In this document: in pieces, positions 1 through 29,850 of the stretch
Layout: every line of letters starts with the position of its first letter
Position numbering within the stretch: position 1 is the first letter of the stretch
Assembly (NCBI GenBank): GCA_964459705.1
Contig: CAYWNR010000001.1
Coordinates: forward strand, 16,481-54,286
DNA: 37,806 nucleotides
Direction of reading: 5' to 3'
Origin: an uncultured Gemmatimonadaceae bacterium
GTDB lineage: Bacteria; Gemmatimonadota; Gemmatimonadetes; Gemmatimonadales; GWC2-71-9
Notes under the pieces: generated by a model
Databases searched by the model: none
Seen by the model: only the letters and a program-made list of their open reading frames with translations
Told to the model about the DNA's origin: nothing
Position numbers and translations under genes: made by a program

Positions 1-2389
1 CGAAGCCGTTCACCAGCGAGACGAAGAGATCGCCGGAGAGCGTGACCGCGCCGGTCACCGCCACGTGATCGTATTCCGTCCCCGGCGTCGTGCCGCCCAG
101 CTCCACCTCCACGTCCGACATGGACTGCACGTCACCGACCACCGCCAGCGTGGCGATGCCGAATGGAGCCCCCGGCGCCCCTCCCGGCGCGACCAGGCCC
201 GGAGCGCTGAACGCGCTGGTGCTCACGTCCACGGTGCCGGCCCCGCGCAGTCGTCCGGTGTTGACGAACGTGCCGCCGTCCACGGTGAGCGTCCGGCCCG
301 CCGAGACCGTCAGGTCCACCCTGTTGGTGAAGCTGGGGTTCGTGCCGGACTGGACGAACGTGAGGTCGCCGCCGGCAATCTCCAACGCGTCCTCGTTCTG
401 ATGCGCGGCGGACGGCCGATCCACCACCAGCGCGTGATCGATGCGGGCGAGGTAGCGGTTGTCCAGCTCCGCCCGGAGCACGCGGGCGCCACCCATGGTG
501 CCGGGTTCGGAATGCAATTCGCCTTCGCCGTCGATCAGCAGCGTGCCGTTCACCGCGAGGATGGCCGCCCGCGCCGCCGCCGGATCGCGGTTGGTGAGGA
601 GCAGCTGCCCTTCGTTCGTGAATCCCGCGGCCACGGTCAGCACGGCCGAATCGGCGCCTTCGGACGCGATCTCGATGACCGTGCTGCTGTTCGTCGCGAC
701 CGCTCCGGTGATGGCGGCGCGTCCGCGGACCCACAGGTTTCGCAGCACGTTCATGGGCGCGGCGATCGTGGCCGCGCTCCCACCGGCTTCGCGCAGCACG
801 ACGGTGCCGTTGTCCGACACGCCCCACGCACTCGCAACGGAGCCACCGGTGAGGTCGAGCACGCCGCCATCCATGACGAGCACACCGCTATCGGCCGCCA
901 GCACGACGTTGGAGAACGCCAGGGTCGTCTGCTGCCCGCTGACCCCGCCATCCCCCAGGACGAGCTTCCCAACGGTCACGGCGGCAGTTGCCGCACTGAC
1001 GGTGTACGTCCCTGACAACGTGATCAGCGCCGTGTCATTTGGCCCTGGCACGCTTCCGGTACTCCAATTCGTCCCGTCACTCCAGCTCCCGCCGGCCGCA
1101 TTGATCCACGAGACATTTCCGCCGGTCCCCGCTGCAACGACGCGCGCTACGACGCTCGTCGCGTTGTAGTCGATCTGCCAGACACCGGTTGTCAGCGTGG
1201 GCAGATACAGCGTCGGGAACGCGCCGCTTACGCTTCCCGCCGTTAGAACGGTGAACGCGTCACCGACCGCCGGCACGAATCCGTTCATCAACTCCAGTTG
1301 CAGGTACCCGTTCAGCGTCGCGGAGCCACTCACGAGGATCTGGTCGTACTCGCCGTCAGGGGTCGTACCACTGATGTCGATCAGGGTGGCGGCCGACGGT
1401 CCCAGCGGGAGGTTGCCAACGACCCTGAAGGTCCCCGGCAGGCCGAAGGTGTTCGGGGACAGGTCGCCGTCGGCCCGAACGAAGCTGGTCCCCGAGACAT
1501 CGAGCGTTCCCGTGCCACGCAGCCCGCCCGTCGACGTGAAGGTCCCGCCGGTCACCACCAGGGTACGCCCAGCATCGATGGTGAACCCGGCCCCGCTGAG
1601 CGTCGGGTTGGTCCCGGTCTGCACGAACGTCAGGTCACCGCCGGTGAGCATGCCGCTGCCGACGTGCACCGCGGAGGGCCGATCCACCACGAGCGACTGG
1701 TCGACGTGGACGCGCGCGGAGTTGTCCATCAGGACCTGGGCACGCAGGGTCCGACTGCCACCCATGGTCCCGGGCTCGACGAAGAAGTCGCCCGTTTCGC
1801 CGTCGATCTGTAGGGTACCGCCTGATACCTCGAGCGTCGCTGCGCGCGGCGCGGCCGGATCGAGGTTGGACAGGTAGAGATCGCCAGTGACCACGAGGCC
1901 GGTGGCCAGTGTCAGCACCGCCGAGTCCGCCGCTTCCGACGCGATTTCAATCAGGGACCGATTGTCGGTGAGCGTTCCCGTGATCGCGCCGAGGCCCCGA
2001 ACCAGGAGGTTTCCACTGTTGGCGAACGACGTTGCGATCGTCGCGGGACTGGCGTTGAAATCCCGCAGGACGACCGTGCCGTCGTTGAGCACGCCGGCCG
2101 CACCCGCCACGGACCCACCCGTCAGGTCGAGCACTCCACCCACCGTGACCCGTATTCCACCCTCGGCCGTGAGCGTCACCGCCGACAGCGCCAGCGTCAT
2201 CTGCCCCCCGCTCGCGCCGTCGTCACCCACCACCAGGCGACCCACGTTCACCACGGCGTCCGCGTCGGTCACGGTGTACGTCCCCGAGAGCGTGATCAAC
2301 GCGGTATCGCTTGGGCCAGGAACGGTTCCGGTGCTCCAGTTGCTGCCGTCGTTCCAGTTCCCGCCAGCCGCGTTGACCCACGAGACATT
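1..2389 (-). repeat. Two tandem 1272-bp (424-aa) coding modules inside the lipoprotein gene; the second reaches the window edge
   Basis: Module starts NVSWVNAAGGNWNDGSNWSTGTVPGPSDTALITLSGTYTV (Asn codon 2389-2387) and NVSWINAAGGSWSDGTNWSTGSVPGPNDTALITLSGTYTV (1117-1115). The modules are collinear throughout. Examples are EPGTMGGSRTLRA / EPGTMGGARVLRA, GGDLTFVQTGTNP / GGDLTFVQSGTNP, and GEYDQILVSGSATLNGYLQLELMNGF / TEYDHVAVTGAVTLSGDLFVSLVNGF. By eye roughly half the residues are identical. Confidence 0.85.
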
Positions 2390-6884: not shown

Positions 6885-8881
6885 GGCGCTTCCACCAGGA
6901 CCGCCACAGGACTCTCGGCGGACTCGTTGCCTGACGTGTCAACGGCGCGTACGACGTAGCGGGCCCCCCGCGGCCCTGCGCGATCCACGTACCGCGGGGT
7001 CGCGGCCGACACTTCCGCCAGGCGCGTGCGGGGGCCGTCACTCCGCTCGGCTCGGTAGATCACGTAGCCCCGCAGGTCGGCGCTCACCACGCGCTCCCAG
7101 CGGAGCAGGGCTCCGGAATCGTCGCGAATCGCGGTCAGACGGCGCGGCGACGGGGGACGGGTGAGGTCGCGGAAGGTAAGCGTATCGGCCCGCGGCGCCG
7201 AGCGGTTTCCAGCCGAGTCCACGGCGATCACGCGCCAGGTCGCGGTCGGGCCGCGTGGTGCGGTGGTGTCGCGCGCTTCGAGTCGGTCCGATCCGACCAC
7301 GCTCGCGACCACGACCGGCGTGCCGTTCGTTGCGACGCGCTCCACCACATAGCGCGCCACGTCGAGCGACGGACTTCCGGTCCACACGATCTCCACGTCC
7401 CGGCCGAGATGGTTGCGGAGCGCAATGGTCCGCGCGGCCTCGGGAGGTTCGTCGTCCACGATGCGCAGCCGTGCGTCGGCGGGCGCGGACACGTTGCCCG
7501 AGCTGTCTTCCGCGACGACGCGCCAGGCATAGCTCCGCCCCGGCTCCAGTGGGGTCGCACTGTAGCCCGAATCCACGAAGACCGCGGCGCGGAGGGGTTG
7601 GCTGGTGAGCGTGGCGAACAGCGTGTCGTCACGCTCGGCGCGCTGCACCTGGTAGCCCCGCAGGTCGGGATCTGGTACCGCCGTCCAGGTGAGCCGAACG
7701 CGATGACCGGGGAGCGGGGTCGCGGTGAGCCCCGTCGGCATGGCAGGCGGCCGCTGATCCAGCGCGCGCGTGGTCGTGGGATTCGAGGGCGGGCCGGCAC
7801 GGCCCGCGCCATCCAGCGCGCGCACTCGATAGGTGTAGATCTCCCGGCCACTCACGAGCGTGTCCACCCACTCGGGCGCATCGGCCGGCACCATCGCCCG
7901 TGTGACCCGCGTGAAGACGGAATCACCACCCGCCGCACGCTCGACGTGGAACCCCCGCACCTCGGGCTCGGGTGACACCGTCCACACCACGCGGATGCGG
8001 CCGTCGCTCACCTGCGTTGCCACCTGTTCGGGCGGCAAGGGTCCACGCACGTTCGGGGCGCGCACCGCCGTCACCGGCCCCGGTTCCGACAGCCGGCCCA
8101 ACAAGTCGGCGGCCCGCAGCCGATAGCGATAGAGGTGGTGCGGCTCGACCGCTTCGTCACGGAATCCGCTGGCTCGGTCGGCGAGTCGCATCACCGGGAG
8201 TGCGGAGATCCGTGCGAAGCCCCCCGTGCTGTCGGCGCGCTCGACGACATACGCGACGACGATGTCATTCGGCGCGCCGGTGAAAGCCGGCGGGGTCCAC
8301 TCCAGCGCGATCGCTTCGTCCCGCACCCGGCCATTGGGGGCTGGAGCCGGTGGCACGGGCATGTCGACAACACGCACGGTGGCCTGCGCTGTACGCAGCG
8401 CCGAGTCCGGGCGCGAGAGCCGGACGAGTTGGGCCGTGTATGCGTGCGTCTCGCCTGCGGTGACCGTCGAGTCCACGTAGAGCGCGCCCAAGGCGAGTGC
8501 GGCGCGTGGCGAGAGAATCTGCGCAACGCCTGCGGCGGTGCCTCCGGCTCGCAGGCGCCGGTACACCTCCACGACGGATTCTCTCGCAGTGATGCGTTGT
8601 AGCAGCGCCAGGTCGTTGGCGACCATCGCTCCGAAGGCGGCCGGGTCGAGCACGCCGGTCATCGGCTCCGCGGTGAGTCGCACGCCGTCGCGCGAGATGA
8701 TCCATCCCTCTCCATCGGCTGGCACCCGGGTCGGGTATACGAACACGCGTCCTTCGCTGACGACCACGGCGAGGCGGCCCTGCACGGGCGCGTCACTCTG
8801 CCCCAGTGCGACACCTGTCCAGACCATGAGCGCGATGCCGATCGCGCCCGCGCGGGGAAGTGGCGATGACGTGCGCATCAC
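6881..8881 (-). CDS. Secreted protein with an unknown ~180-aa N-terminal domain followed by five fibronectin type III-like modules (666 aa)
   Basis: Signal peptide ...AIGIALMVWTGVALG-QSD. The FN3 signature recurs five times: (L/V)xW...D(L/V)xGYxVxR...Y.Y.V.A.D..GN.S. Examples are RVRLTWTAVPDPDLRGYQVQRAE...YAWRVVAEDSSGNVSAP and LLRWERVVSADLRGYVIYRAE...YVVRAVDTSGNESAES. The start is GTG 8881-8879 (GTGA overlap with the giant gene's stop) or ATG 8878-8876. Confidence 0.85.
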   Translation of the reverse strand: MMRTSSPLPRAGAIGIALMVWTGVALGQSDAPVQGRLAVVVSEGRVFVYPTRVPADGEGWIISRDGVRLTAEPMTGVLDPAAFGAMVANDLALLQRITARESVVEVYRRLRAGGTAAGVAQILSPRAALALGALYVDSTVTAGETHAYTAQLVRLSRPDSALRTAQATVRVVDMPVPPAPAPNGRVRDEAIALEWTPPAFTGAPNDIVVAYVVERADSTGGFARISALPVMRLADRASGFRDEAVEPHHLYRYRLRAADLLGRLSEPGPVTAVRAPNVRGPLPPEQVATQVSDGRIRVVWTVSPEPEVRGFHVERAAGGDSVFTRVTRAMVPADAPEWVDTLVSGREIYTYRVRALDGAGRAGPPSNPTTTRALDQRPPAMPTGLTATPLPGHRVRLTWTAVPDPDLRGYQVQRAERDDTLFATLTSQPLRAAVFVDSGYSATPLEPGRSYAWRVVAEDSSGNVSAPADARLRIVDDEPPEAARTIALRNHLGRDVEIVWTGSPSLDVARYVVERVATNGTPVVVASVVGSDRLEARDTTAPRGPTATWRVIAVDSAGNRSAPRADTLTFRDLTRPPSPRRLTAIRDDSGALLRWERVVSADLRGYVIYRAERSDGPRTRLAEVSAATPRYVDRAGPRGARYVVRAVDTSGNESAESPVAVLVEAP

Positions 8882-11800
8882 CTGATCCTCGCGCTGGATG
8901 CCTTGCTCGCGATGCCGGCGCCGTTCTTGACGCGCACGAACACATAGAGCTGACTGGCCTGCAGTATTTGAGCAGGCAGCTGGATGGTGCGGGTGGAGGT
9001 ACCAGCGGCGACCGGATAGGCCACGTAGGGGATGGAATACGTGCTCGTACCCGACGAGAGGATCGGCTCGGTGGAGGACGTTCCGAAGGAGATATCCACG
9101 CCTCCAAGCCCGCTCTCCGGATCGGTTTGCACGGTGAGCGTCAATACCGCCGCGCCGTTCACGATGCGTCCGGAGACGCCGGCGGGCTGCGGAGGCGTGA
9201 CGTCCGCCAGCACTTCGCCGCTCGAGGCCACATCGCCCGCGACGCCGAGGCCGCTCACGGCACGGAGGTCCACGAGGAAGCGCCAGCCACCCGCGGGCGT
9301 GAACGGAATTCGCACGCCAGTGTTCGCGAGCGCCTGCGAGGCGGGCCAGTCCACCGTGGATCCGGACGGGAACCCGCGTACCGTTACTCCGGTGACGGCA
9401 TCGCGCACGCGGATCTGATAGCCCAGGACGCCGGTCTCGTCATCGGTGGCGAGTGTCGTGAGGTAGGCGATGATCCCGGCGCTGTACCCGGCGCAGAACG
9501 CTGGACGGCTCGGAACGGTGGCGTCCGGGACTGTTACCGGACCGTAGGTGAGCGGTGCCGACTTCACGCCCAGCGCGTTGATCGCGACGAGCGTCACGAA
9601 GCGCGGCTTGCCATACCGGAAGTCCGGACCCGTCGCTACGAACGATGGGGTTGCTTCCGGGATGTCCGCCCATCCGTCGTTCGGCAGCACCGGACCGGGG
9701 GCCACCGAGTCCACGCGGTAGAGGTAGCCGTAGATCCCGGTCTCGGGATCCGTCGCGTCCGGGCGTCCGAGGGTCAGCCGGACACGCGCGTCACCGCCCA
9801 CGATACCGCCGGTCGGGACAACCGTGACGAGCCGGCCATCCCACACCGGCCGCTCCTCGCCAGATCTGAGGCTCGTCGTCGTGCCGCAGGCCGGGCTCGG
9901 TGCGGGCTGCGAGATGAGCAGGACGGGTGCACGGGGAGTCGCGAACATGCCGGCGGGCGGCACGAGCTGGCTTCCCACCGGGAAGACCGGCGGCGTAGGA
10001 TCAAGCCGCAGCACCGGTGACTGGCCGATGTCGCCCACGAGTCCGGCGCCGTTGGTCGCGCGAACTTCCACGTGGATCTTCTGGCTCGCCGCCAGATGCA
10101 GGCCCTGGATGGCCGCGCTAGTGCGCCCGCCGACGCTCGTCCAATCCACGAGCACCGTCGGCCGAACGAGTGTGGCCCGACCGAGGAGCGACGAGGTTTG
10201 CGTGGTCGTCTGTTCCACCGGGAGTGCGAGGACGCGGTACGCGTATTCCGCGATACCACTCTCCGGATCCGAGGCGCTCCAGCGCGCGGTGACGCGTGTC
10301 GAGTCCGCCGTCCACACCTCGCCCACACCGTCGACGTTCACTAGCGTGGGCAACCCCACGAATTCCACGACCGGACGCCCCGGTGGGGTGAGATCGACCG
10401 GTGGCACCGCGACCGTGCTGTGCGGCGTCGCAACCGGCGTACTGGAGAACGTCAGCGTGTACGGCGTGAGCGCTTCGCCGGTGAGCCCTGCTCCGCCACG
10501 CACCAGTACGTGCTGGTTGCGCGCGACCGTGCCGCCGGCGGGCTCGGTCGAGTACGCCCAGCGCACGGCCTCGCCCGTGCCACCCACGGAGTGCAGGGAG
10601 TCGCTCCCCTCCTGCAGGAGGTACTCGTACACGCCGCGCGGATGCGTGCCCGACCACGTGGTCGTAATCGACGAGAGGAATCCGTAGTCGGTGACTACCA
10701 CGCGCGGGCTCGTGACGCGCGGCGCCTGCAGCATTTCGTTGAGCTCGGCGAGCCGCGCCGAGAACTGCTGGCCCTCCGTTCCCGTCGTCCCGTACGTCCG
10801 CAGGTAGTCATCGTACAGGTCGTGAAGCACGCCGTAGAGCTCCGCCTGCTGCTCGTTCAGTGCGGCGAGCGACGACGTGAGCGACGCCAGTTGATCGCGA
10901 GCGGAACGGATGACGAGCTCCGCCGTGTCGGCCGCGCCGTCGACGACGGCCCGGGCTCCATCGCGCGCCTGGGTGAGCCCGGCGTCGGCGACCTCCCACC
11001 ACGTCCGGAGCCCGTAGCTCACCGCTTGCGTGCGAAACCACGTGAGCGCCTGGTCCATGCGCGCGGAGGCCGCCCCGTCGAGCGAATCAGATTTGAGCGC
11101 CTTCGCCGCAGCCACCCGCTGCGCGCGCCAGCTCGCCGCATCGGAGGCATAGGTCTGCTCCAACGACGGGTCCCCCGCCCATTCGCTCAGGTAGTGCACT
11201 CGGCTTGCCGCGAGTGCATCGAGCTCGACCGCCGTGCCGGAGCGCTGCAGATAGTCCGGGTTGCCCAACGTCTGCTGATAGGAGCTGATGTCGCCGAGCT
11301 TCGCGTTGAGTCGCTGCTCGACTCCGGGCCGCTCCTGCGCCAGCGTATCCAGCTTGGCCAGCGTCCAGCTCAACCGCCGCATCCGAAACTCGACGTTCAC
11401 CGCATGCTCGCGCTCGATCGTCTCGACGGCGTCGCTGTGGAGCCGTGCGTACGAAGCGAACGAGGCGGCATCGGTGCCGCTTGTCGCTGCGAGGACCGTC
11501 GCGAGTCCGGACTCGACCGCCGCGATCTGGTCGCGCATTTGCGCCTGCCTGGCGACCGTCGCGGCCTGCGCCGCGCTCATCGTACCTCGTGCGGTTGCCG
11601 ATGCCTCATCGTCGAGCGCGAACTCGGGGACGCCGGTGAGTACCATAGTCGGCGCGCCATCAGGGCCAGCAGGCCCTTCCACGAGCGCGGGACTTCCCGA
11701 CGACCATGTCGTGACCGGGTCGGCGGGCGGCACGAAGGCGGCGGTCTCCTCCAGATCGGCGAGCTGGAGCCGCACGGCCCGGATGCGCGCCTCGACCTCT

Positions 11801-14800
11801 GCGCGCTGGTCCACGATCACGGCCAGCTTGTGTTCCGCCTCGGCGCGGAGCTGTACCACTTCGGCTGTGTCCGCGGCCGCTTCGGAGTTGCTCAACACGC
11901 GCTCGTAAAACGCGACGTATGGGTCGGTGGCGGTGGTGGGGAGCAGTCCGCCGCGCGTGGTGCCCTCCATGGCGCGGAAGCCGTTCCACCCCACGAGCAT
12001 CTGCACCCAGTTCCAGCGCTGGAAGTTGGCGTACGCAGCGGCGAGACTCTCGCGCGAGACGGGAATCGGCGTTCGCGCCAGCTCCTGGGCCGCCGCATCG
12101 ATGCCGGCGAGAATGTCGTTCGCTTCGGATTCCAACTCGCTCGCCACTTGCTGAGCGTGGGCGAGCACGGCCGCCAGTTCCTCGCTGCGTCCGAGCCCCA
12201 TCGCGAACCCGCCCGGCGTGTACTGCGCCCAGACCTCGAACGTGAGCAGGTCTACGCCCACCACGCGCGCCGTCCCCTGGGCGTAGATCGCCAACTGGGG
12301 CTCGATCACGAGCGCGCCGATCATGCCGAGCTCGCCGGTGACCCCCATCGCGGTCACCTGACCCGTGAACGTCAGGAAGGCTCCGAGATCGCTGGTAGAC
12401 GGTCGATACCAGAGCCGCAGGTTCGCGCCCACCGTCGCCGACAAGGCATTGGTGCTCTTCGACACCGAATAGCCCATGCTCACGGTGAATCCACTCGGGA
12501 CGACGATCACCTCGGCGTTGGCCTGGATCACGTCGAGGATGGTGAAGTCGGCATTTCCTTTCACCGCGAACGTGTTGCTGCCCGCGAAGAACTGGATGCC
12601 GGCGCTGCCGCTAACGGTCTTCTCGATGTTCACCACCAGCGTCACGTCACCCCGGACGTAGGCAGCCGGTGACCACCCCACCTGCAGCGCGAGGTCGCCG
12701 GAGATCTGGTTGTGCATGTTGAAGAACGTCGCCATCGCGTTGAGCTGCGCGGCCTGGTCGGTGATTGTCAGCATCGCTCGCCCCGAGGCGGCCGAAGCAC
12801 CACCCGCGCCGACGACGTCCACGGACGCGTAGAGCATGACCGCGAACTGCCCCGCGGGTGGCATCCCCACCCGATCCGCCGACGGGCCGTTCAAGCCGGC
12901 AACGTTCTTGACCAACTGCAGGTCCGTCGTGCTCGGGTTGATGAAGAACCCGCCTCCGACGCCGGTGAGCGTCACGACTCCCGGAACGAGCGGCACCTCG
13001 ACGCTCGTACGCAGGAAGATCCCGGCGCTGAACTGGTCGGCGCGCCGCCGCATCACGCCGACCATGGCGACCTCGTAGTGCCCGAGCAGTGTTCCCTCGG
13101 TGGCAAGCGAGAGGTCGAATCCGTTCGGCAGCTCGTCGTAGCTCAGCGACGCCTGGAAGGCGACGACGTCGGGGATCTCCACGGCGAGGTTGTGGATCAG
13201 GAGATGTGTGGTCGAGTCGCTGGCGCGGACGTAGACGAGCACGCGATCCACGCCGCCCTTGAACACCCCAGCCACGTCCACCGAAGCGCCGAAGTCCAGA
13301 TAGTTCCGGACCGTGACGGAGACGCTGTCTGGACGGACGCTCCCATCTGACGCCGGCGGCTGCGCGACCGGGACGAAGATGGACGATTCCTCCCTGTTCC
13401 ACGCAACGCGCCCGACCACGAGCTTCACCTTCTCCTGGATCGTGAACGTGCCGCCGTCGAAGCTCGCCTCGCCGAGGTTCACCTCGCCTGCGGACGTGAA
13501 GCCAACGTTGTGGAACGTGAGCGTGCCACTGCCGCCCGCGACATCGAGCGCCAGGCTGCCACCGAGCGCCACCGCGAACCCCGTCTCGGTCGGTTGCGCC
13601 GTCGCCTGCCGGACCGTGAGCGTGGCCGGTGCCATGCGCACGGTGATCGGACTCGGCATGGCGAGGCCACCCCACGTGACCGCGCCATTCGCCGCGATCC
13701 GGATGCCCGGCGTGACGGTGCCGCCCGATACCGACCCGAACCGGAGCAGGTTGCTCGGGTCGTCCTGCACGTAGACGTCCGCCACCATCGACGCGGCGGT
13801 GTTCGCCTGGTTCTCGAAGTCGAGCGCGAGGTCGAGACGCCGGAGATGGAACGTGGCAACGCCGGCACTCACCTTGGTCTGCGCGGACGCGAGCCCCTCG
13901 GGCTCGTCGATCAACACCACGTGACCACCGCCGGTGACGCGGCCGTCCGGGAGCACGTGCACCGTCACCTCCTGCGGAGCTCGTGAGGTGAACGGCGGCG
14001 GGAGCGTCACGGCACCCGCGAGCTCCAGCGCCCGGGTGGCGATGCGCGCGGTGGTGAGTTGCGCGTACCCGGGAATGATGTCGATGGGACGACTGAGGAA
14101 GTTCGCGCCCTGCAAGGCGAACGAGCCGTCGGTGCCGACTTGGAGCCCGATGAAGCGCATGGTGTTCTGGAGCAGTGTGACGTAGCCCGACATCGTGAAG
14201 CGAACGACGCCGGCCGCGATCGCCACGTCCACCGCCGGTGCTACCTGCGTGGAACCGACGACCGAATCCTGCAATGCGAATTGCGCGCCGAATAGCTCGA
14301 ACTCGGCCGTACTCGTCGGTGCGGTGATGGAGATGTTCGGCAAGGTGATCCCCGTCGAGCCCACCCGGAGATCGTGGACGCTCAGCGCAAAGCCCGGAGC
14401 GAGGTCCGGCAGTCGCAGCGTGCCGCCCAGTCGCAGCGCGAAGTCCTGCGCCGTGGCATCCACGACGATCCCCGGCTGCCCAAAGCCATTCTCGATGGTC
14501 AGCGCCGCTTGTCCGATCGCGATGGGGGTCTCGGGATCGCTCACGTCAGCGGTCCCGTGGAAGCCCTGCGCGTCCACGCGCGCCGCCAGATGAATGGGCA
14601 ACGGCGTTCCCTCGGCGGATGCGAGGAACACCGAATGGATGGCACCCGAGACCTCGACGACGTTCGCGTTCGGCGCCAGCGTCAGCCGGGCGCCCGTCAG
14701 CCGGACCGCCAGCGTGTCCCCGCGGAACTGGGCCTCGGCGATCGCCGGCGCCGACGGCACGTACGTCTCGCTGTACTGGCCAAGCTCGACCTGACCGCGC

Positions 14801-17800
14801 AGCCCCTCCGCGGAGAGCTCCATATCGCGGAAGACGAGGTCCACGTCATCGAGTGGTCCAGGGAGCGTCGCGCGCAGGTCCGCCTGTAGGTGATAGCCGC
14901 CCGCGCCGCCACGGTACGCGAGCTGCGTGATCGCCACCGGGTAACCCGGCAGCGTGATGAGCGGTGCTCCCGCCTGGGTGCTCACGACGATCTCGCCGCT
15001 CAGCGGCCGGAGGTTGCGCGCGTTCAGGACGAGGTCGAAGCTCGTCCGCACGTCCGGTGGCGCCCCGCCGTCCGCGAGCGCTGGCAGCACGAGGTCCACT
15101 TGCTCGTTCGGCCGGGTCCGGATCCGCAGGGTTTCGGCGGAGAAGATCGTCTCCACCAGGAGGACCGAGGTGTCCGCCGGGTTCCGCAACTGGAGGTAGG
15201 CCACGTCTTCGCTCGGGATCCCGAGGCGCGCCGGGATCGGCAAAACCGCAAAGACGTTGCCCGGCCAGAAGCCGAGCCGGTTCACGTACGCGATCAAGTC
15301 GCCTTCTGGACTCCGCAGGTCGAGCCGCCCCTGCGTGATCGCCACCCGTGGCGAAAACCCGATCGTGAACGCGCTGTCGAACGTCGCCGTCAGGGCCGCG
15401 TACGTCTCGCCGCCGTAGCCAAGCGATGCCGTGGCGGTTCCCGTCAGCTCCACTCCGGCCGTGTCGATCACCGCGCCGGCCGACAGCACGATGCGCGCGG
15501 ACGCGCCGGTTCCGCGGGGCTCGGTGGCCGGGAAGACGCCATACACGAGATCACCGGACTCCCCGATCTCGATCCCCACCGCCAGGTCGGCGGTGACGTG
15601 GATGCGTCCCTTCGCGAGCGTGCCGGTGTTGAGATCGAAGGCGACGTCTTCGAACCCGACGTCAACGCCGGCACCCTCGGCGGTCCGCAGCTCGCCCGTG
15701 GCGCCGAACTGCAGCCAGTGCTGCGTGAGGGACGCCTGGTTGACGACGAGACGCAGGAAGGGGTTCGCCGGGTCCGGCGCCCAATAGAACGGCTGGTCGA
15801 TGCTGGCCTCCGCGTCGACGACTTCGCCGCGGATCAGATCGATGGACAGGGTCCCGGTGGCGGAGACCGTGTCGCCCGCTTGATCGCTGAGGAGCCGCAC
15901 GACAACCGACGCGTCGAGGCCGGCCTCGACCGTCCCCGAGTCCGCGTCGTAGCCGAATCGGACGGTGCTGTTGCCGATCTGCGCCTCAAGCGGGCCGAGT
16001 GCGACGACGCAGGTGGGAAGCACGTTCCGGACCGATCCGTACAGCGTCCCGTTACCCGCAATGAAGAGCGTGTCCGTAGGGGACTCGAGCGATACGGTGC
16101 CAGAAACCGCGGACGGACACGCGAGCAGGTTTGGCAGCGTGAGGTCGGCAAGCAGCCCGATTCGCACGTCGCCCGGCCCATTCTCGGACAGGTCGAACGA
16201 GCCGAAGGCGCCGCGGATGTCGGCGACCGGCGTCCGGAGCGGACGTGGGAAGTCCACGCGCTCGAACGTTCCCGTGAGCCGCCCATTCGCGAACCCCACA
16301 TCGAGCGCGCGGATCGTGAAGCGGGCCGTCTGGTCGTCAAGACCGGAGGGGATGTCCTCGATCGCGAACTCAAGGTCCACGCCGAAATCCAGCTCGGGCG
16401 GCGGCGCGTTGCTGGACCAATCCCAGCGGAATTCGCCCACGCGGTACGCGAGCGCGCGCACGGCGAACCCCCCGACGCGCAGCGGGCGCAGGGAGTCGCT
16501 GCCGGACTCGAAGGGGCCGTTCGGATCGGAGATCGTCGGAACCGCGGGAAGCTCGAACCCCGGCACCACCATGCCCTGCGGCGTGATGTGGACGTCCCGG
16601 ATCTCCGGAAGGCGCAGACTGTCAAGCGCGGGGATTTCGATGGCCGCGTCGAACAGGAACTCGAAGTCGAACTGTGACTGCGCGATGTCCCAGCGGAACT
16701 GCGGCGCGCGGAACCGTCCCAGCAGCAGGTCGACGCCTGGCAGCGGGACGCGGAAGAGCGAATCGGGCGACTCGAAGTTCACGAGCGCCGCTTCGGTTGG
16801 GGACAGGCGGAACGTGGCCGTGGCGATCTGGGTCGTCCGGTCCGCATCCGGGTCCACGTAGGCGATGTGGCCCGGCAGCTCCAGCCGCCACGCGAACGTC
16901 GCGTCGAGCGGTCCCTGGGCCTGGAACCGGAGCGTGTCGATGCCGAACCGCAGACGGGATACGCCGGGCACTAGCGCGACACTGTCGCTGAACGGCTGCT
17001 CGATGTCCGCCGACAGGATGCCGCCTCCCTCGAGCCCCAGCGTGATGCGCAGCGGCTCCTGGCCGTTCAGCAGTGCCAGCCGCCCGTGCGCGAGGAACGA
17101 CGGCTCGCTTCCGCGCTCCGCCCGAAGTGCGATCGAGTCGAGGACGAACGGGAAGTCGGCGGTCGGCTGGCCGCCCGCGGCCCCTGAGCTGGTCTTCGCG
17201 CTCAGCTGACCGGAGATCGGAAGGAGCGTTCCGCGGTCGAGCGTGAGGTCGAACGCAACGTCGAGCGCGGGCGGATCCGGTCGCGTGCCCTTGAGCGCGG
17301 GAACGACGAGCCGGAGTGTCTCGCCCGTCCGCGTGCGGAAGCGCAGTCCGTCGTCCGTCGAGTCCACCTGCACCAGGAGGTTGCCGGTCGTGTCCTTGAG
17401 CGGGACGAAGGCGGTCGCGCGGTCGCGCAAGAACAGCGTGTCCGGGATGACCGCTGTGAGCAGCTCGGCGAGCGCGAGATGCCACCCGGAGGCGTCCAGG
17501 TACGCGATCGGATACTCCTTCAGGTGCACCGTCGCGCGGCCGCCTGTGACGCGCCCGCTCGCGGGCTGAACCGCGAAGCCCTCCTCGAACGTGACCGACG
17601 CGTCGTCGAACCGCGATCCCCGGACGGCCACCTGCGCCGGTGCCCGGCCCTGGAGACGGAGGCCGTCCGCATTGACGGCCGGTGCGGCGGGCAGCACCAA
17701 CCGGATGTTCCCGCCACCCCAGTCACTGTCCTTCGGGTCGAACGAGCCGCTCGCGAGACTTGGCGTGAAGTTCTTGGCTCCGCTCCACACGAAGCCGATC

Positions 17801-20800
17801 GGCGACGACTCCAGTGCCAGTCCCTCCATCATCCCGATGGCACCGGAGGTGATGTCGCCGGAGGCGGGATTGAGATACACTCCCGCGAACGTGACGCTCA
17901 CGGTGTCCGTCCGGTGCGTGTACACGCTGTCGATACGTTCCGCGTTGTAGTCCTTGACGCCCGACATCACGGAATCGACGAGCATCCGCTGTCGTCCGTC
18001 CACGAGCAGACCCCGCGGGCTCAGCGTGGCCCGGGCGACGATGAACGTCAGCATGCCCCACTCGAGCTTAAACGGACCTTCCAGCGCGATGTCGCCGGAC
18101 AGCAGCCGGCCGGTGATGTAGTCAATGCGCGCCGTGGCCGTGGGCGCGTCCTGCGTGCCGCTCAGGACCCCGCTCGCCAACCCGCCCGCCGGACCGGCGG
18201 CCTGCGCAGCCGCGTCCGCCCCGGCTTTGGCCTTGTCCTGTACGGCAGCACTCTCGTCCGACGCGCTGGTCTTCGCCGGTTCTTCCTTCTTCGCCTCCTC
18301 GATCCGCCCGAAGTCCACCTTGATCGACCCATCGTAGATGGCCGTCTGCGTGCCGGAATCGCTGACCGCGAGCACCAACTGCCCACCGGCCGGGGAGAGC
18401 TTCGCGAATCGCAGGTCGAACTGGACCCAGGATGGTTGGAAGCCCTCCAGGGTACCGCGCAGCCGACCCGTGGGCGTCAGCCGCAGCTCACCGTTCAGCT
18501 CGTGAGAGGTCGTCTGGCCTAAGCACCCGACCACCGGCAGCCCGCAGTCGGGATCCGGTCGCACCAGGGCGCCCGCGATCAGGGGAAACTCGGTCACCCG
18601 GGGCGTATCGCCGAGGGCAAAGACCACCTTCCCATCCACGGTCTCGACGCTGACGTGCAGGTTGTCGGCCTCGCGCAGCACGCAGCCATTCTCGAAGCGA
18701 TGCTCCTGGAGGGTCGCATCGATGCGGCCATCCTTGACCACCAGAGTGTCCACCTCGAACGGCTGCTCGTTGAGACATGCCGACTGCTCCAGGGGCACGT
18801 GCGGGAAGGAGACCCAGCTCGTCCCCGACCCCCACTCGAAGCCGGGGTCTTGGCCGCTCAGCCAACGGTCGTAGGGCACTTGCTGGCCAACGAATCCCAT
18901 GGTGCGTGGCAAGAGCTGCACGCTATCGATCTCGATGACACCGGACGTTTGCGTTCCTGGCGCGTCCGAACTGCTGCCGGGCAACGTCACGCCGGTCTCG
19001 TCGAGGACAACGCCCTCAATGGGTGGGAGCTGGAGGTTCTCCGCCCCCCGCGCCTGGGGTGCAAGGTCCACCAACGCCCGCCAGACGAGTCGCCCGCCTG
19101 GATCGAGGTCGAATCTGTCCAGCCGCAGGTTCGACAGTCCCATCCGGACCCAGCCGAAGTCCGCGTACGCATGGCCTGCGTCGCAGTCGCTGCGCTCGTC
19201 CTCGCGCGTCAGTGACTCCCGCCCGAGCACGAGGGTGAAATCCACCGTACACCCTTCGCTGGCGTCGCCGAACACCTGCAGCGTCGCCGGCGCTCGGAGG
19301 TCACTCTCCAGTCGGTCGCCGAGGAAATCCGCGGTGAGTGAGCCCGCGATCGTGCCGAACGTCACCAGCGGACGCGTTTCAGCTCCGCCCGGCGCGAAGC
19401 CGCCCGTCGGTCGACAGACAACCGGGATCGTGACCACGCCATCAGCCAGCGTTCCCGTGGCCGAGCAACCGACATCGGCGCCGAGCACGCGCACCTGCCC
19501 CGTCATCTCGAGGCGTCCCGTGGGCAGGAGGAGCCGCGCCTGGTCCACCGCGTACTGCACCGGTGAGCCTCCGATGCTCGCCAGGGGAGCATCCGCCGGA
19601 GCGGTTCTCTCCAGTTGACCGAACAATCCAGCCGCGGTGACTTGTGCCCGCCCCGTCAGGTCCATCGGTGCGAACCCCGGGAGTGCCACCTGCGCCGCCA
19701 GCGTGAGTCCTGAACCGGTCTCGTAGCCAAGTTGGGTGAACCGCACCAACGGTCCTGCCGCCGCCGCGAGATCGCTGCCGGACTTCACCGCGCCGCTGAG
19801 CTCTCCGGACCGCACGACTGCGAGGCTCTGGATGCTGGTCCGATCGATCTCGAGGTCGCGTGCCTCGACGCGCACGATTGTCCGGAGCGGCGCCTCCAAC
19901 TCGAGGTTCAACCACCCGTTGACGACGTACGCGAAATCGGTGAGACCGACCTCGGCGCTCCGAAGGCCCGTGAGTTGCGCCACGCCCGGGATGAGCGTCA
20001 GCGTGTCGGGTAGTTCCTTCGTCACTCCCGTCTCACGGCCCGGTCCACCGACTGAAAACGTCCAGATCTCGCTCGACCGTCCACCGCGCGTCACGGGCCG
20101 GCCCTCGCCGTCGAGCGCTTCGACCGACCACACGTACTGCTTCATGGGATCGAGGGGCAGCGCGTCCAGCGGGTAGACGACCATCGGAGCGCCGGTCTCC
20201 TCCTCCTCGAACCACACCGGATTGGCGAAGACGGCGGTTTCCGGTGTCTGTCCTTTGAGCAACTCGAAGACCCGCACCCGATACGACGCGCCGATCTCTG
20301 GCGGCAGGAAGATCGGGGTCCATTGAAAGACGGGCAGGAGTCCGGCCACGACCCCCTGGTTGGCCGGGAAGATCAGCTGCGGCGGCTCCGGCAGCGCGAT
20401 TGTGAAATCGGCGCACGTAGACACCAGCTCGACGTTTTGCGCGTCGAGCACGCGCGCGCACATCTGGTGTCGGCCCTCCGGGATCATCCCGGTGCGCAGC
20501 ACCTGGTCCACGTACTTCTGATCCTGGCGGACGGTCTCCCAATCGAGGATATCGGCGCCAGTGAAGATCTGCGTGACGGGCCCGAACCCGAACGAGACGG
20601 ACGGACTCACGACGCGGGCCAACTCCCCGCGCTCGGCGCTCTGGACCCACCCCTCGACGCGGAAGTCCTGCGGTGCCGTTCCACTGTAGATGAGCGTCAG
20701 GACCGCCATCTGGGGATTGCGCTCCCAGTCGGCGATGAACGGAGACGGAAACGGCTGGACCAGCAGACTGGCGGTCCACCCGGGGGCCTGCGCGGCCAGC

Positions 20801-20931
20801 TCGGCGGGCTGGGTGCCGCCGACCAGGACGGCGAGCAGCACCCCCAGACGCACCCAAGCGCCCCCGTTGGTTCGAGGGCGCCTCCCAGGCCGGTCGTCCG
20901 CGGTCGCCATTGCGCCGAACACAGCCGTCAA
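8878..20931 (-). CDS. Giant secreted protein (4017 aa from TTG 20931; 4010 aa from ATG 20910), family not recognised. N-terminal signal, small beta-sandwich-like modules, ~2600 aa of beta-rich repeats, ~490-aa helical segment, four C-terminal FN3-like modules.
   Basis: A single uninterrupted 12-kb frame with protein-like composition and G/C-rich third positions. Signal-like N-terminus ...GGAWVRLGVLLAVLVGGTQPAELAAQA-PGW. There are internal repeats, a K/E/A-rich linker and an Ala/Glu/Leu/Gln-rich helical block. C-terminal modules carry DPESGI / DPETGI / DDETGV / DPESGL motifs. The start is ambiguous: TTG 20931-20929 overlaps the upstream small ORF's TGA as TTGA, and ATG 20910-20908 is the first ATG. 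Confidence 0.9.
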   Translation of the reverse strand: MTAVFGAMATADDRPGRRPRTNGGAWVRLGVLLAVLVGGTQPAELAAQAPGWTASLLVQPFPSPFIADWERNPQMAVLTLIYSGTAPQDFRVEGWVQSAERGELARVVSPSVSFGFGPVTQIFTGADILDWETVRQDQKYVDQVLRTGMIPEGRHQMCARVLDAQNVELVSTCADFTIALPEPPQLIFPANQGVVAGLLPVFQWTPIFLPPEIGASYRVRVFELLKGQTPETAVFANPVWFEEEETGAPMVVYPLDALPLDPMKQYVWSVEALDGEGRPVTRGGRSSEIWTFSVGGPGRETGVTKELPDTLTLIPGVAQLTGLRSAEVGLTDFAYVVNGWLNLELEAPLRTIVRVEARDLEIDRTSIQSLAVVRSGELSGAVKSGSDLAAAAGPLVRFTQLGYETGSGLTLAAQVALPGFAPMDLTGRAQVTAAGLFGQLERTAPADAPLASIGGSPVQYAVDQARLLLPTGRLEMTGQVRVLGADVGCSATGTLADGVVTIPVVCRPTGGFAPGGAETRPLVTFGTIAGSLTADFLGDRLESDLRAPATLQVFGDASEGCTVDFTLVLGRESLTREDERSDCDAGHAYADFGWVRMGLSNLRLDRFDLDPGGRLVWRALVDLAPQARGAENLQLPPIEGVVLDETGVTLPGSSSDAPGTQTSGVIEIDSVQLLPRTMGFVGQQVPYDRWLSGQDPGFEWGSGTSWVSFPHVPLEQSACLNEQPFEVDTLVVKDGRIDATLQEHRFENGCVLREADNLHVSVETVDGKVVFALGDTPRVTEFPLIAGALVRPDPDCGLPVVGCLGQTTSHELNGELRLTPTGRLRGTLEGFQPSWVQFDLRFAKLSPAGGQLVLAVSDSGTQTAIYDGSIKVDFGRIEEAKKEEPAKTSASDESAAVQDKAKAGADAAAQAAGPAGGLASGVLSGTQDAPTATARIDYITGRLLSGDIALEGPFKLEWGMLTFIVARATLSPRGLLVDGRQRMLVDSVMSGVKDYNAERIDSVYTHRTDTVSVTFAGVYLNPASGDITSGAIGMMEGLALESSPIGFVWSGAKNFTPSLASGSFDPKDSDWGGGNIRLVLPAAPAVNADGLRLQGRAPAQVAVRGSRFDDASVTFEEGFAVQPASGRVTGGRATVHLKEYPIAYLDASGWHLALAELLTAVIPDTLFLRDRATAFVPLKDTTGNLLVQVDSTDDGLRFRTRTGETLRLVVPALKGTRPDPPALDVAFDLTLDRGTLLPISGQLSAKTSSGAAGGQPTADFPFVLDSIALRAERGSEPSFLAHGRLALLNGQEPLRITLGLEGGGILSADIEQPFSDSVALVPGVSRLRFGIDTLRFQAQGPLDATFAWRLELPGHIAYVDPDADRTTQIATATFRLSPTEAALVNFESPDSLFRVPLPGVDLLLGRFRAPQFRWDIAQSQFDFEFLFDAAIEIPALDSLRLPEIRDVHITPQGMVVPGFELPAVPTISDPNGPFESGSDSLRPLRVGGFAVRALAYRVGEFRWDWSSNAPPPELDFGVDLEFAIEDIPSGLDDQTARFTIRALDVGFANGRLTGTFERVDFPRPLRTPVADIRGAFGSFDLSENGPGDVRIGLLADLTLPNLLACPSAVSGTVSLESPTDTLFIAGNGTLYGSVRNVLPTCVVALGPLEAQIGNSTVRFGYDADSGTVEAGLDASVVVRLLSDQAGDTVSATGTLSIDLIRGEVVDAEASIDQPFYWAPDPANPFLRLVVNQASLTQHWLQFGATGELRTAEGAGVDVGFEDVAFDLNTGTLAKGRIHVTADLAVGIEIGESGDLVYGVFPATEPRGTGASARIVLSAGAVIDTAGVELTGTATASLGYGGETYAALTATFDSAFTIGFSPRVAITQGRLDLRSPEGDLIAYVNRLGFWPGNVFAVLPIPARLGIPSEDVAYLQLRNPADTSVLLVETIFSAETLRIRTRPNEQVDLVLPALADGGAPPDVRTSFDLVLNARNLRPLSGEIVVSTQAGAPLITLPGYPVAITQLAYRGGAGGYHLQADLRATLPGPLDDVDLVFRDMELSAEGLRGQVELGQYSETYVPSAPAIAEAQFRGDTLAVRLTGARLTLAPNANVVEVSGAIHSVFLASAEGTPLPIHLAARVDAQGFHGTADVSDPETPIAIGQAALTIENGFGQPGIVVDATAQDFALRLGGTLRLPDLAPGFALSVHDLRVGSTGITLPNISITAPTSTAEFELFGAQFALQDSVVGSTQVAPAVDVAIAAGVVRFTMSGYVTLLQNTMRFIGLQVGTDGSFALQGANFLSRPIDIIPGYAQLTTARIATRALELAGAVTLPPPFTSRAPQEVTVHVLPDGRVTGGGHVVLIDEPEGLASAQTKVSAGVATFHLRRLDLALDFENQANTAASMVADVYVQDDPSNLLRFGSVSGGTVTPGIRIAANGAVTWGGLAMPSPITVRMAPATLTVRQATAQPTETGFAVALGGSLALDVAGGSGTLTFHNVGFTSAGEVNLGEASFDGGTFTIQEKVKLVVGRVAWNREESSIFVPVAQPPASDGSVRPDSVSVTVRNYLDFGASVDVAGVFKGGVDRVLVYVRASDSTTHLLIHNLAVEIPDVVAFQASLSYDELPNGFDLSLATEGTLLGHYEVAMVGVMRRRADQFSAGIFLRTSVEVPLVPGVVTLTGVGGGFFINPSTTDLQLVKNVAGLNGPSADRVGMPPAGQFAVMLYASVDVVGAGGASAASGRAMLTITDQAAQLNAMATFFNMHNQISGDLALQVGWSPAAYVRGDVTLVVNIEKTVSGSAGIQFFAGSNTFAVKGNADFTILDVIQANAEVIVVPSGFTVSMGYSVSKSTNALSATVGANLRLWYRPSTSDLGAFLTFTGQVTAMGVTGELGMIGALVIEPQLAIYAQGTARVVGVDLLTFEVWAQYTPGGFAMGLGRSEELAAVLAHAQQVASELESEANDILAGIDAAAQELARTPIPVSRESLAAAYANFQRWNWVQMLVGWNGFRAMEGTTRGGLLPTTATDPYVAFYERVLSNSEAAADTAEVVQLRAEAEHKLAVIVDQRAEVEARIRAVRLQLADLEETAAFVPPADPVTTWSSGSPALVEGPAGPDGAPTMVLTGVPEFALDDEASATARGTMSAAQAATVARQAQMRDQIAAVESGLATVLAATSGTDAASFASYARLHSDAVETIEREHAVNVEFRMRRLSWTLAKLDTLAQERPGVEQRLNAKLGDISSYQQTLGNPDYLQRSGTAVELDALAASRVHYLSEWAGDPSLEQTYASDAASWRAQRVAAAKALKSDSLDGAASARMDQALTWFRTQAVSYGLRTWWEVADAGLTQARDGARAVVDGAADTAELVIRSARDQLASLTSSLAALNEQQAELYGVLHDLYDDYLRTYGTTGTEGQQFSARLAELNEMLQAPRVTSPRVVVTDYGFLSSITTTWSGTHPRGVYEYLLQEGSDSLHSVGGTGEAVRWAYSTEPAGGTVARNQHVLVRGGAGLTGEALTPYTLTFSSTPVATPHSTVAVPPVDLTPPGRPVVEFVGLPTLVNVDGVGEVWTADSTRVTARWSASDPESGIAEYAYRVLALPVEQTTTQTSSLLGRATLVRPTVLVDWTSVGGRTSAAIQGLHLAASQKIHVEVRATNGAGLVGDIGQSPVLRLDPTPPVFPVGSQLVPPAGMFATPRAPVLLISQPAPSPACGTTTSLRSGEERPVWDGRLVTVVPTGGIVGGDARVRLTLGRPDATDPETGIYGYLYRVDSVAPGPVLPNDGWADIPEATPSFVATGPDFRYGKPRFVTLVAINALGVKSAPLTYGPVTVPDATVPSRPAFCAGYSAGIIAYLTTLATDDETGVLGYQIRVRDAVTGVTVRGFPSGSTVDWPASQALANTGVRIPFTPAGGWRFLVDLRAVSGLGVAGDVASSGEVLADVTPPQPAGVSGRIVNGAAVLTLTVQTDPESGLGGVDISFGTSSTEPILSSGTSTYSIPYVAYPVAAGTSTRTIQLPAQILQASQLYVFVRVKNGAGIASKASSARIR
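10717..12192 (-). other. Predicted alpha-helical / coiled-coil-like segment of the giant protein (residues ~2914-3405)
   Basis: The composition changes sharply from G/T/V/S/D-rich beta-type sequence to A/E/L/Q/R-rich runs. Examples are SEELAAVLAHAQQVASELESEANDILAGIDAAAQELA, VVQLRAEAEHKLAVIVDQRAEVEARIRAVRLQLADLEE and LASLTSSLAALNEQQAELYGVLHDLYDDYL. Confidence 0.6.
18127..18300 (-). other. Lys/Glu/Ala-rich low-complexity linker in the giant protein (residues 878-935)
   Basis: EEAKKEEPAKTSASDESAAVQDKAKAGADAAAQAAGPAGGLASGVLSG. I verified codon coordinates directly: GAG GAG GCG AAG AAG GAA GAA starts at 18300 on the minus strand. Confidence 0.7.
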
Positions 20932-29630: not shown

Positions 29631-29850
29631 CGCGTAATCAGCGAAGATAGACCGTGGACGGCAGGGGCGGCAACGCGGCCGCCGAGGGGGGGATCCCCGG
29701 GCCCCCACGCCCCGAGGCGACCGCGAGGCGTCCCATAGAGACGGACTGGACCCCTCATTACCTTTCGACCCGTTCCCCCGTCGAGTCGATCGATGGTTAC
29801 GCCGCCCGCACCACGGGGTTGACCAGCGACCCCTTTGCGAGAAAACCGCC

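Follow-up and report, generated by a model that had tools for sequence, protein, structure and literature searches.

Where in a bacterial envelope would a protein of 4,017 residues with an N-terminal export signal and a very long β-rich body reside, and what would it do there? The question is raised by a 37,806-nucleotide stretch of DNA from an uncultured Gemmatimonadaceae bacterium (contig CAYWNR010000001.1), hereafter the window, in which one reading frame encodes such a giant. An earlier note, made from the sequence alone, had offered two answers: a periplasm-spanning groove protein of the AsmA/TamB type, and an extracellular fiber or adhesin. We propose, with moderate confidence, that the giant is a cell-surface fiber docked on an outer-membrane β-barrel encoded in its own operon.

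Export signal of the giant

The signal peptide was read from an alignment of 34 family sequences. Their N-termini carry a basic n-region followed by an uncharged stretch of 11–22 residues, and about 30 of the 34 have the motif A-x-A↓Q (the arrow marks cleavage) 3–8 residues ahead of the first conserved domain. Because the hydrophobic region is short and the A-x-A↓Q site is conserved, the N-terminus is predicted to be a Sec signal cleaved by signal peptidase I and not an uncleaved anchor. The giant has no further hydrophobic helix; the 19-residue hydropathy elsewhere reaches at most 1.69. Signal peptides are also found on the FN3, TPR and barrel proteins of the operon. The conserved cleavable signal and the secretion of these partners support a fiber at the cell surface.

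Predicted cleavage at A-x-A↓Q or G↓Q also occurs at the starts of the genes at 8881, 6884 and 6177. A glutamine at position +1, the Q-rule of signal cleavage, was reported as specific to Bacteroidetes in a paper that makes no mention of Gemmatimonadetes (PMC5837995). Judging by the sequences, the rule may extend to Gemmatimonadota.

A coupled operon and fused relatives link the giant to a barrel

The giant is followed by genes for an FN3-repeat protein, a TPR protein, an outer-membrane barrel and an Ig-repeat lipoprotein (Table 1). Overlaps of 4 nucleotides join the first four genes, with the TPR gene filling an apparent gap between the FN3 and barrel genes, and the lipoprotein gene starts within a few bases of the barrel stop. 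From this arrangement the five genes are assigned to one translationally coupled operon, and the overlaps and the near-zero gap favor a fiber that acts together with its barrel. Scans of the operon's surroundings for promoters and terminators found none.

Among homologous loci (L numbers), the gene order is kept in L002, L003, L007, L034 and L036. The FN3 gene is syntenic in L001–L003, L007, L034 and L036, and the Ig-repeat gene in L002, L034 and L036. The TPR gene is kept in six related loci (35–61 % identity); its product has TPR_14/TPR_9 matches, which exceed the Pfam threshold in the L034 and L036 orthologues. The barrel is 38–53 % identical in five loci. In L034 and L036 the giant is just 29–31 % identical and the barrel still 52 %; retention of the five-gene order at this divergence also speaks for the docked fiber. 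In about 25 loci, Longimicrobiales locus L004 among them, a gene for a BTAD/AAA/TPR regulator lies next to the giant gene in divergent orientation.

The barrel protein has a signal peptide and a C-terminal aromatic residue, and three of eight members of its family match Pfam PF13505 OMP_b-brl (best E 8e-5). The window protein itself matches no barrel model and no specific barrel family, and a search of the barrel profile against the PDB returned nothing. We classify it, from its sequence and that of its relatives, as an outer-membrane barrel of an undescribed family.

In four loci, the N-terminal didomain of the giant occurs in one polypeptide with the barrel. These fused open reading frames (ORFs) of about 975 residues (L037:2207-5209, L038:6047-8992, L040:3361-6291 and L041:9869-12799) encode, in order, a signal peptide, the didomain, a Pro/Ala/Ser-rich linker of about 200 residues, and a barrel of about 480 residues homologous to that of the operon. 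Their didomains are 26–29 % identical to that of the giant over about 230–260 residues. Such a Rosetta-stone link is the strongest evidence, on the level of sequence, that the N-terminus of the giant and the barrel work together physically, and it argues for docking. A barrel hidden Markov model (HMM) run over the top 150 didomain proteins found no barrel. The gene upstream of the fused ORF in L038 encodes a 1,382-residue CARDB/DUF11 protein.

A large family with a shared domain order

Used as a profile in an exhaustive HMMER search, residues 45–1100 of the giant matched 3,765 cluster representatives at E≤1e-3, of which 363 reached E≤1e-30. The giant is, by these matches, one member of a large uncharacterized family and not unique. 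Named members are annotated as "hypothetical protein" from Gemmatimonadales, Gemmatimonadota or Longimicrobiales, and literature searches returned no description of the family. Homology searches with tiles of about 1,150–1,200 residues recovered just one or two relatives, owing to a limiting word index.

The best 150 of the HMMER matches were scanned with HMMs of the individual domains, derived from the window's family. The order didomain, "pre" segment, super-repeat(s), C1 region, GGGFF domain and FN3 tail is shared by 88 of them, and the helix HMM was detected in 64 of these full-length members. The 88 proteins are 3,118–6,395 residues long and carry one (n=4), two (n=76), three (n=6) or five (n=2) copies of a super-repeat of about 740 residues. 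Variation between 1, 2, 3 and 5 repeats supports a fiber. The didomain always stands directly behind the signal peptide. It also heads other proteins of 800–2,200 residues, one of them from Ignavibacteria, that contain CarboxypepD_reg, bMG3, Big_2 or SpaA-type sandwiches. Heading other multi-β-sandwich proteins is what a sorting or anchoring module would do, and this counts in favor of the docked fiber.

A variant architecture of about 3,800–3,950 residues (P0100, P0092, P0109, P0127, P0134 and P0143, one of them from candidate division KSB1) carries one super-repeat and a didomain with an additional module 2, together with a much earlier GGGFF domain (about residues 1730–2240) and a long, different C-terminal half. 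A complete relative of 1,361 residues (P0006, L044:10001-14086), from a Longimicrobiales metagenome-assembled genome (MAG), consists of the didomain, the pre segment and one super-repeat. It adjoins NikR and a TonB-dependent receptor, and the regulator and barrel are not beside it.

Domain anatomy and predicted structure of the giant

The domain layout given in the earlier note holds almost point by point (Table 1). The small modules it placed at residues ~50–300 are real, and no other part of the protein is conserved as widely. This didomain (residues ~49–296) includes PPQLIFPANQGVV...PVFQWTP...YVWSVEALD and holds the conserved pair C158/C173. The β-rich body contains large internal repeats, as had been described: residues ~473–1287 match ~1278–2023 with a probability of up to 100 % and E 2e-43 in a profile–profile comparison (hhalign, 10-sequence alignment). 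Such a comparison was required, as plain self-BLAST gave nothing whole-length and weak repeat matches in tiles. In finer tiles, residues 350–468 resemble 1220–1304 and 1958–2084, the ends of both super-repeat copies. The K/E/A-rich linker is an insertion in copy A, and the offset between the repeats shifts there from 806 to 745. The cysteines C489, C506, C561, C583, C719 and C750 of copy A are invariant. The invariant Cys pairs are located in the N-terminal third of the giant and add to the case for a surface fiber.

No other region of the giant is as hydrophobic or as poor in charge as the GGGFF domain, in which 10–13 % of the residues are charged. Its motifs FsGGv, GGGFFyNP, GaY and Wa...gG.G are strongly conserved among 101 family members, and DSSP assignment of a low-confidence AlphaFold model yields a β-meander. 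The helical segment, which the earlier note placed at residues 2914–3405, is all-helical at 2917–3402 in the DSSP assignment, also at low confidence; its family profile gave just insignificant coiled-coil matches. The FN3-like tail comprises four clear modules, m2–m5, which are mutually homologous (97–99.5 %), behind a divergent first one. The family profile of the tail (A12) aligns to FN3 arrays of titin (E 4.9e-11), and Pfam fn3 scores 26.3 bits against a cut-off of 25 in homologue P0042. The tail of the window sequence alone has no Pfam match, and its assignment as FN3-type is made at the level of the family profile.

The giant as a single sequence matches zero Pfam families at E≤1, none of relevance in NCBIfam and no PHROG, and nothing significant turned up in the PDB in sequence and profile searches that used 1, 3 and 10 sequences. 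The novelty suggested in the earlier note thus stands, with no characterized family matched in Pfam, NCBIfam or the PDB.

An AlphaFold model of residues 45–1100, based on a seven-sequence alignment, has a mean predicted local distance difference test (pLDDT) score of 61, with values of 70–90 at residues ~304–644 and 55–76 at ~684–875. The part modeled moderately to well (~304–875) is all-β, with many strands of 10–20 residues. Foldseek searches of the PDB and BFVD, by which a groove fold had been sought, found weak, generic matches to tandem β-sandwich/FN3 arrays only, among them the lambda J fiber, GbpA, the Sevenless ectodomain and macroglobulin (MG) arrays of complement and alpha-2-macroglobulin, and no groove-type lipid-transfer protein. 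Groove proteins are few in the PDB, so that this negative is weak, and the result speaks mildly, not decisively, for a beaded fiber. The confident, all-β part of the model with its resemblance to β-sandwich arrays, together with the FN3 tail, is consistent with the fiber on the cell surface. A model of residues 2330–3420 from a two-sequence alignment was unusable (pLDDT 37.6). Its Foldseek matches, long-helix proteins and the TcdA delivery domain (E 4e-3, probability 0.14), were rejected as noise.

Table 1 Features of the giant protein, its operon and the divergent regulator, in window coordinates
Feature	Coordinates	Strand	Remarks
Giant coding sequence (gene 1, read from 20931 to 8878)	8878..20931	-	Heads operon; TTG start at 20931; 4,017 aa; reading frame uninterrupted
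Sec type-I signal peptide, residues 1-48	20788..20931	-	Cleavage predicted at LAA↓QAPGW
N-terminal didomain (Nmod), residues 49-296	20044..20787	-	Two β-sandwich modules, second FN3-like
"Pre" β segment, residues 297-472	19516..20043	-	Kin to super-repeat ends; pLDDT 70-90, all-β
β super-repeat copy A, residues 473-1287	17071..19515	-	Profile match to copy B; Cys pairs
K/E/A-rich low-complexity linker, residues ~875-935	18127..18309	-	From sequence and shift of repeat offset; pLDDT <50
β super-repeat copy B, residues 1288-2023	14863..17070	-	Profile match to copy A
β region C1, residues 2024-2540	13312..14862	-	Recurring sub-modules of ~75-95 aa
GGGFF domain, residues 2541-2912	12196..13311	-	Hydrophobic, low-charge, hairpin-rich β; motif VTLTGVGGGFFINP
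Helical domain, residues 2913-3405	10717..12195	-	Predicted long helices; motif NFQRWNW
C-terminal tail, residues 3406-4017	8881..10716	-	4-5 FN3-type modules, by profile matches
Gene 2, secreted FN3-repeat protein, 666 aa	6881..8881	-	fn3 1.3e-18; 4-nt overlap with giant stop
Gene 3, secreted TPR protein, 236 aa	6174..6884	-	ATGA overlaps at both ends; newly noticed
Gene 4, predicted outer-membrane β-barrel, 557 aa	4504..6177	-	Signal peptide; ends ...LSLARSF; ATGA overlap
Gene 5, Big_1/Big_2/Invasin_D3 Ig-repeat protein, >=1,480 aa	2..4501	-	Lipobox-like start VAAAC; extends beyond left edge
Divergent regulator Trans_reg_C-BTAD-AAA_16-TPR, 1,295 aa	21231..25118	+	Domain matches

Proposed model of the fiber and alternative placements

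We hypothesize that Sec exports the giant and that the signal peptide is then removed, as the sequence pattern suggests. The didomain would dock on the barrel and thereby hold the fiber at the outer membrane, and the small periplasmic TPR protein would act as a receptor or chaperone of the barrel. The β super-repeats, observed in one to five copies depending on the species, would form a length-setting stalk. A β module of about 100 residues is usually 3.5–4 nm long, and the periplasm measures about 25–30 nm; a giant with two super-repeats would reach about 80–90 nm, well past the periplasm. At the far end, the GGGFF domain, the helical bundle and the FN3 tail, together with the co-translated FN3 partner, would form a working tip that binds to, or inserts into, a surface or another cell. 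The divergent BTAD/AAA/TPR regulator, given its conserved adjacency, would set expression. The operon context favors the extracellular alternative of the earlier note as the more likely answer.

Several points weigh against this model. The location of the giant is entirely inferred from sequence, and its placement outside the cell is a prediction. By default topology the N-terminus of a barrel is periplasmic, and the didomain, possibly even the whole giant, could be so too; the fused relatives bear on this point. The Pro-rich linker in these fusions has the look of a periplasmic tether, not of an autotransporter helix. The partner barrel is not homologous to Omp85/TpsB, ushers, secretins or TolC, and translocation by it is putative. 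The strands in the AlphaFold model, often 10–20 residues long, exceed those of typical Ig/FN3 domains. The link between didomain and barrel rests on the giant operons and the four fused loci, and the function of the tip is a guess, given the pLDDT of the GGGFF/helical model.

A doubtful alternative, which is the main rival since the fused relatives resemble a barrel with a periplasmic tethered domain, keeps the giant within the envelope. The didomain would sit on the periplasmic face of the barrel or on peptidoglycan, and the β body would be a periplasmic or trans-envelope scaffold, possibly a lipid groove like that of TamB/YhdP/AsmA. The position of the fused didomain ahead of the barrel and its linker is indeed the layout of a periplasmic tether, and the operon encodes a periplasmic TPR protein. 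Long amphipathic strands in the model and the hydrophobic, low-charge β domain at residues 2600–2900 also agree with retention in the envelope, as does the bacterial alpha-2-macroglobulin MG3 domain of one didomain protein. The bacterial alpha-2-macroglobulin family is periplasmic. An alpha-2-macroglobulin-like architecture for the giant was considered and dropped, as it has no thioester Cys and no matches to the corresponding Pfam models. Set against retention are the absence of AsmA/TamB/DUF490 homology at E≤1, a cleaved signal peptide in place of an inner-membrane anchor, and a length range, set by one to five super-repeats, that ill suits a bridge of fixed span. An FN3 tail, an FN3 partner and a neighboring Ig-repeat lipoprotein would typically go with a surface structure, and the lack of groove proteins among the Foldseek matches is a further, weak point. 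The TamB/AsmA answer of the earlier note is therefore not supported, because the signal is of a cleavable type, homology is absent, and the length is not fixed by the width of the periplasm; a POTRA/Omp85 partner is also missing.

It is improbable that the giant is secreted and released as a component of a matrix, coat or S-layer-like structure, with no lasting attachment to the barrel. The evidence for export is the same as for the docked fiber, and the adjacent Ig and FN3 proteins could co-assemble with it. The gene fusion of didomain and barrel, however, argues for lasting physical association, and a protein of about 430 kDa that shares an operon with its own barrel better fits an anchored fiber.

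We give little probability to a weapon for contact-dependent delivery or pore formation, in which the stalk presents the tip, and the GGGFF domain and long helices insert in a target membrane. Membrane insertion has been proposed for the FHA-2 region of CdiA and the delivery domains of large toxins. The size of the giant, its dedicated barrel and its conserved, targeting-like N-terminal domain parallel CdiA/CdiB, and the weakly charged, hydrophobic hairpin meander of the GGGFF domain is followed by helices of 40–95 residues. The top Foldseek match of the poor model, the TcdA delivery domain, points in the same direction but is not significant, and the model behind it is unusable. Moreover, the C-terminus is a conserved FN3 array and not a variable toxin, and purifying selection is uniform (see below), with no hypervariable tip. 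No immunity-like small gene lies downstream, and Pfam and NCBIfam searches gave no toxin, Rhs, MACPF or RTX matches. A polymorphic toxin was dropped from consideration for its conserved C-terminus.

Coding status of the giant gene

Because GC-rich DNA yields long chance ORFs, the coding status of the giant gene was tested. The overall GC content of the window is 69 %. Antisense ORFs opposite the giant homologues encode 3,017 residues in L002 (12998-22051, minus strand) and 2,891 residues in L003 (8435-17110, minus strand). Therefore, ORF length alone is no proof at such GC content. An in-frame ATG at codon 8 offers an alternative start at 20910. GC fractions at codon positions 1/2/3 of the giant ORF are 0.69/0.51/0.86. 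The ratio of nonsynonymous to synonymous substitution rates (dN/dS), calculated against the 83 %-identical homologue of L006, is 0.19 overall and 0.10–0.38 across all 400-codon blocks. Intact homologous ORFs of 3,950–4,340 residues are present in two Gemmatimonadaceae MAGs (L002 and L003) and four metagenome contigs (L006, L007, L034 and L036), and there are at least seven independent intact copies of the gene. Codon-position GC, dN/dS and the intact full-length homologues show that the single 12-kb coding sequence, assumed in the earlier note, is real; the gene is genuine and under constraint. The L001 homologue has a one-base frameshift at ~6928–6937, for which reason it was annotated as a pair of genes (2,298 and 1,694 residues), and the L005 homologue is fragmented over three frames; these broken copies are either assembly errors or pseudogenes. 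An artefact, either a chance frame in a GC-rich genome, as the long antisense ORFs might suggest, or a pseudogene, as the two frameshifted metagenome copies might, is excluded by the third-position GC, the dN/dS, the intact copies and the 88 full-length family representatives.

Comparison with known systems

The layout of the giant system resembles that of two-partner secretion (TPS; type Vb; FHA, HMW1 and CdiA with TpsB). Both combine Sec-dependent export, a conserved domain of about 250 residues behind the signal peptide, a long repetitive β-rich body, and an outer-membrane barrel of their own that the same operon encodes. The fused and split forms of didomain and barrel parallel types Va and Vb. 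The Sec signal, N-proximal conserved domain and cognate barrel gene thus reproduce a TPS-style layout by analogy, not homology: the giant system has no TPS domain (Haemagg_act), no filamentous-haemagglutinin repeats and no Omp85/POTRA barrel in Pfam or NCBIfam searches. Its N-terminal domain is a pair of β-sandwiches, whereas that of TpsA is a β-helix cap, and the operon adds a periplasmic TPR protein and a conserved C-terminal FN3 array.

Giant adhesins of type I secretion systems (T1SS; LapA/LapE, MpIBP and SiiE) are retained by their N-terminus at an outer-membrane channel, extended by a variable number of repeats, and equipped with distal ligand-binding domains. The giant likewise has a putative N-terminal holding module, a variable repeat number and distal domains. 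However, in T1SS adhesins an RTX/T1SS signal at the C-terminus takes the place of a Sec signal, and ABC transporter, membrane fusion protein (MFP) and TolC-like genes are required, whereas the giant has a cleavable signal peptide, no RTX matches, and no ABC/MFP/TolC genes within the 37.8-kb window.

AsmA, TamB and YhdP share with the giant their great length, β-rich composition, amphipathic strands and an outer-membrane barrel partner. Models of AsmA, AsmA_1/2, TamB (DUF490), DUF748 and DUF3971 gave no match in the giant (Pfam E≤1; NCBIfam), which differs from these proteins in its cleaved signal, non-Omp85 partner, variable length, disulfide-type Cys pairs, helical domain and FN3 tail.

SprB/SprF and other giant adhesins that depend on the type IX secretion system (T9SS) of Bacteroidota come from organisms that share the FCB-related lineage, and they too pair a giant repetitive surface protein with a neighboring gene for a small dedicated outer-membrane protein. 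T9SS sorting domains (TIGR04183, TIGR04131, Por_Secre_tail and CHU_C) were absent in Pfam and NCBIfam searches, also when the last 612 residues were scanned by themselves. The giant system has no PorP/SprF match, and its sorting-like domain is N-terminal.

The combination of a periplasmic TPR module and an outer-membrane barrel, with a gene for a lipoprotein of surface-type domains beside it, recalls Slam (type XI) and the TPR-plus-barrel exporters PgaA, BcsC and AlgK/AlgE. In the giant operon, by contrast, TPR protein and barrel are separate polypeptides, and polysaccharide synthesis genes are missing. DUF560 had no match in the partner barrel at E≤10. A PHROG search of the FN3 neighbor found just generic FN3 tail-fiber matches. 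An inverse autotransporter of the intimin/invasin type was dropped, as no barrel of that kind is present.

In layout, the giant system comes closest, by analogy, to two-partner secretion and to those T1SS adhesins that are retained by their N-terminus. All homology-based tests failed (TPS, Omp85/POTRA, RTX, T9SS C-terminal domain, AsmA/TamB and DUF560), and sequence comparison places nothing in known families except the FN3 tail and the generic barrel signature. The system would be of a known type, a giant envelope fiber served by its own barrel, but assembled from components not described before.

Other features of the window

Past its Ig domains, the gene 5 product contains two near-repeats of about 370 residues that start with G(A/G)NVSW(V/I)NAAGG(N/S)W.DG(S/T)NWSTG. 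The plus-strand ORFs listed at 65-4280 are antisense artefacts of this gene. Two adjacent paralogous HEAT-repeat proteins of 514 and 628 residues are encoded at 26580-28124 and 28137-30023, both on the minus strand. The second overlaps the start region of an M28 peptidase-PDZ ORF (29851-31101, plus strand) by about 170 nucleotides, and the start of one of the two ORFs is probably mis-set.

Implications for the envelope of Gemmatimonadota

Gemmatimonadota are abundant in soils and sediments, and their cell envelope is almost unstudied. The giant family has no curated model; it counts 363 cluster representatives at E≤1e-30, and of the best 150 matches at least 88 are full-length. It combines a fixed architecture with a conserved five-gene operon and its own regulator. 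We tentatively speculate, as a rather unlikely extension of the docked fiber, that the didomain, the TPR protein and the undescribed barrel form an unrecognized outer-membrane export-and-anchoring pathway of Gemmatimonadota and neighboring FCB-type phyla. Many large β-sandwich proteins would carry the didomain as their sorting signal, and the family of about 4,000 residues would be the flagship cargo, a length-tunable surface fiber with a membrane-active tip. Sorting and anchoring by didomain, barrel and TPR protein, if true, would add a route of surface display in diderm bacteria and would explain an N-terminal domain common to many unannotated large proteins. The super-repeat in one to five copies provides a natural test of length versus function. 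Even if the giant is an ordinary adhesin-like fiber, the didomain, the super-repeat of about 740 residues, the GGGFF domain and the partner barrel would merit Pfam-type models.

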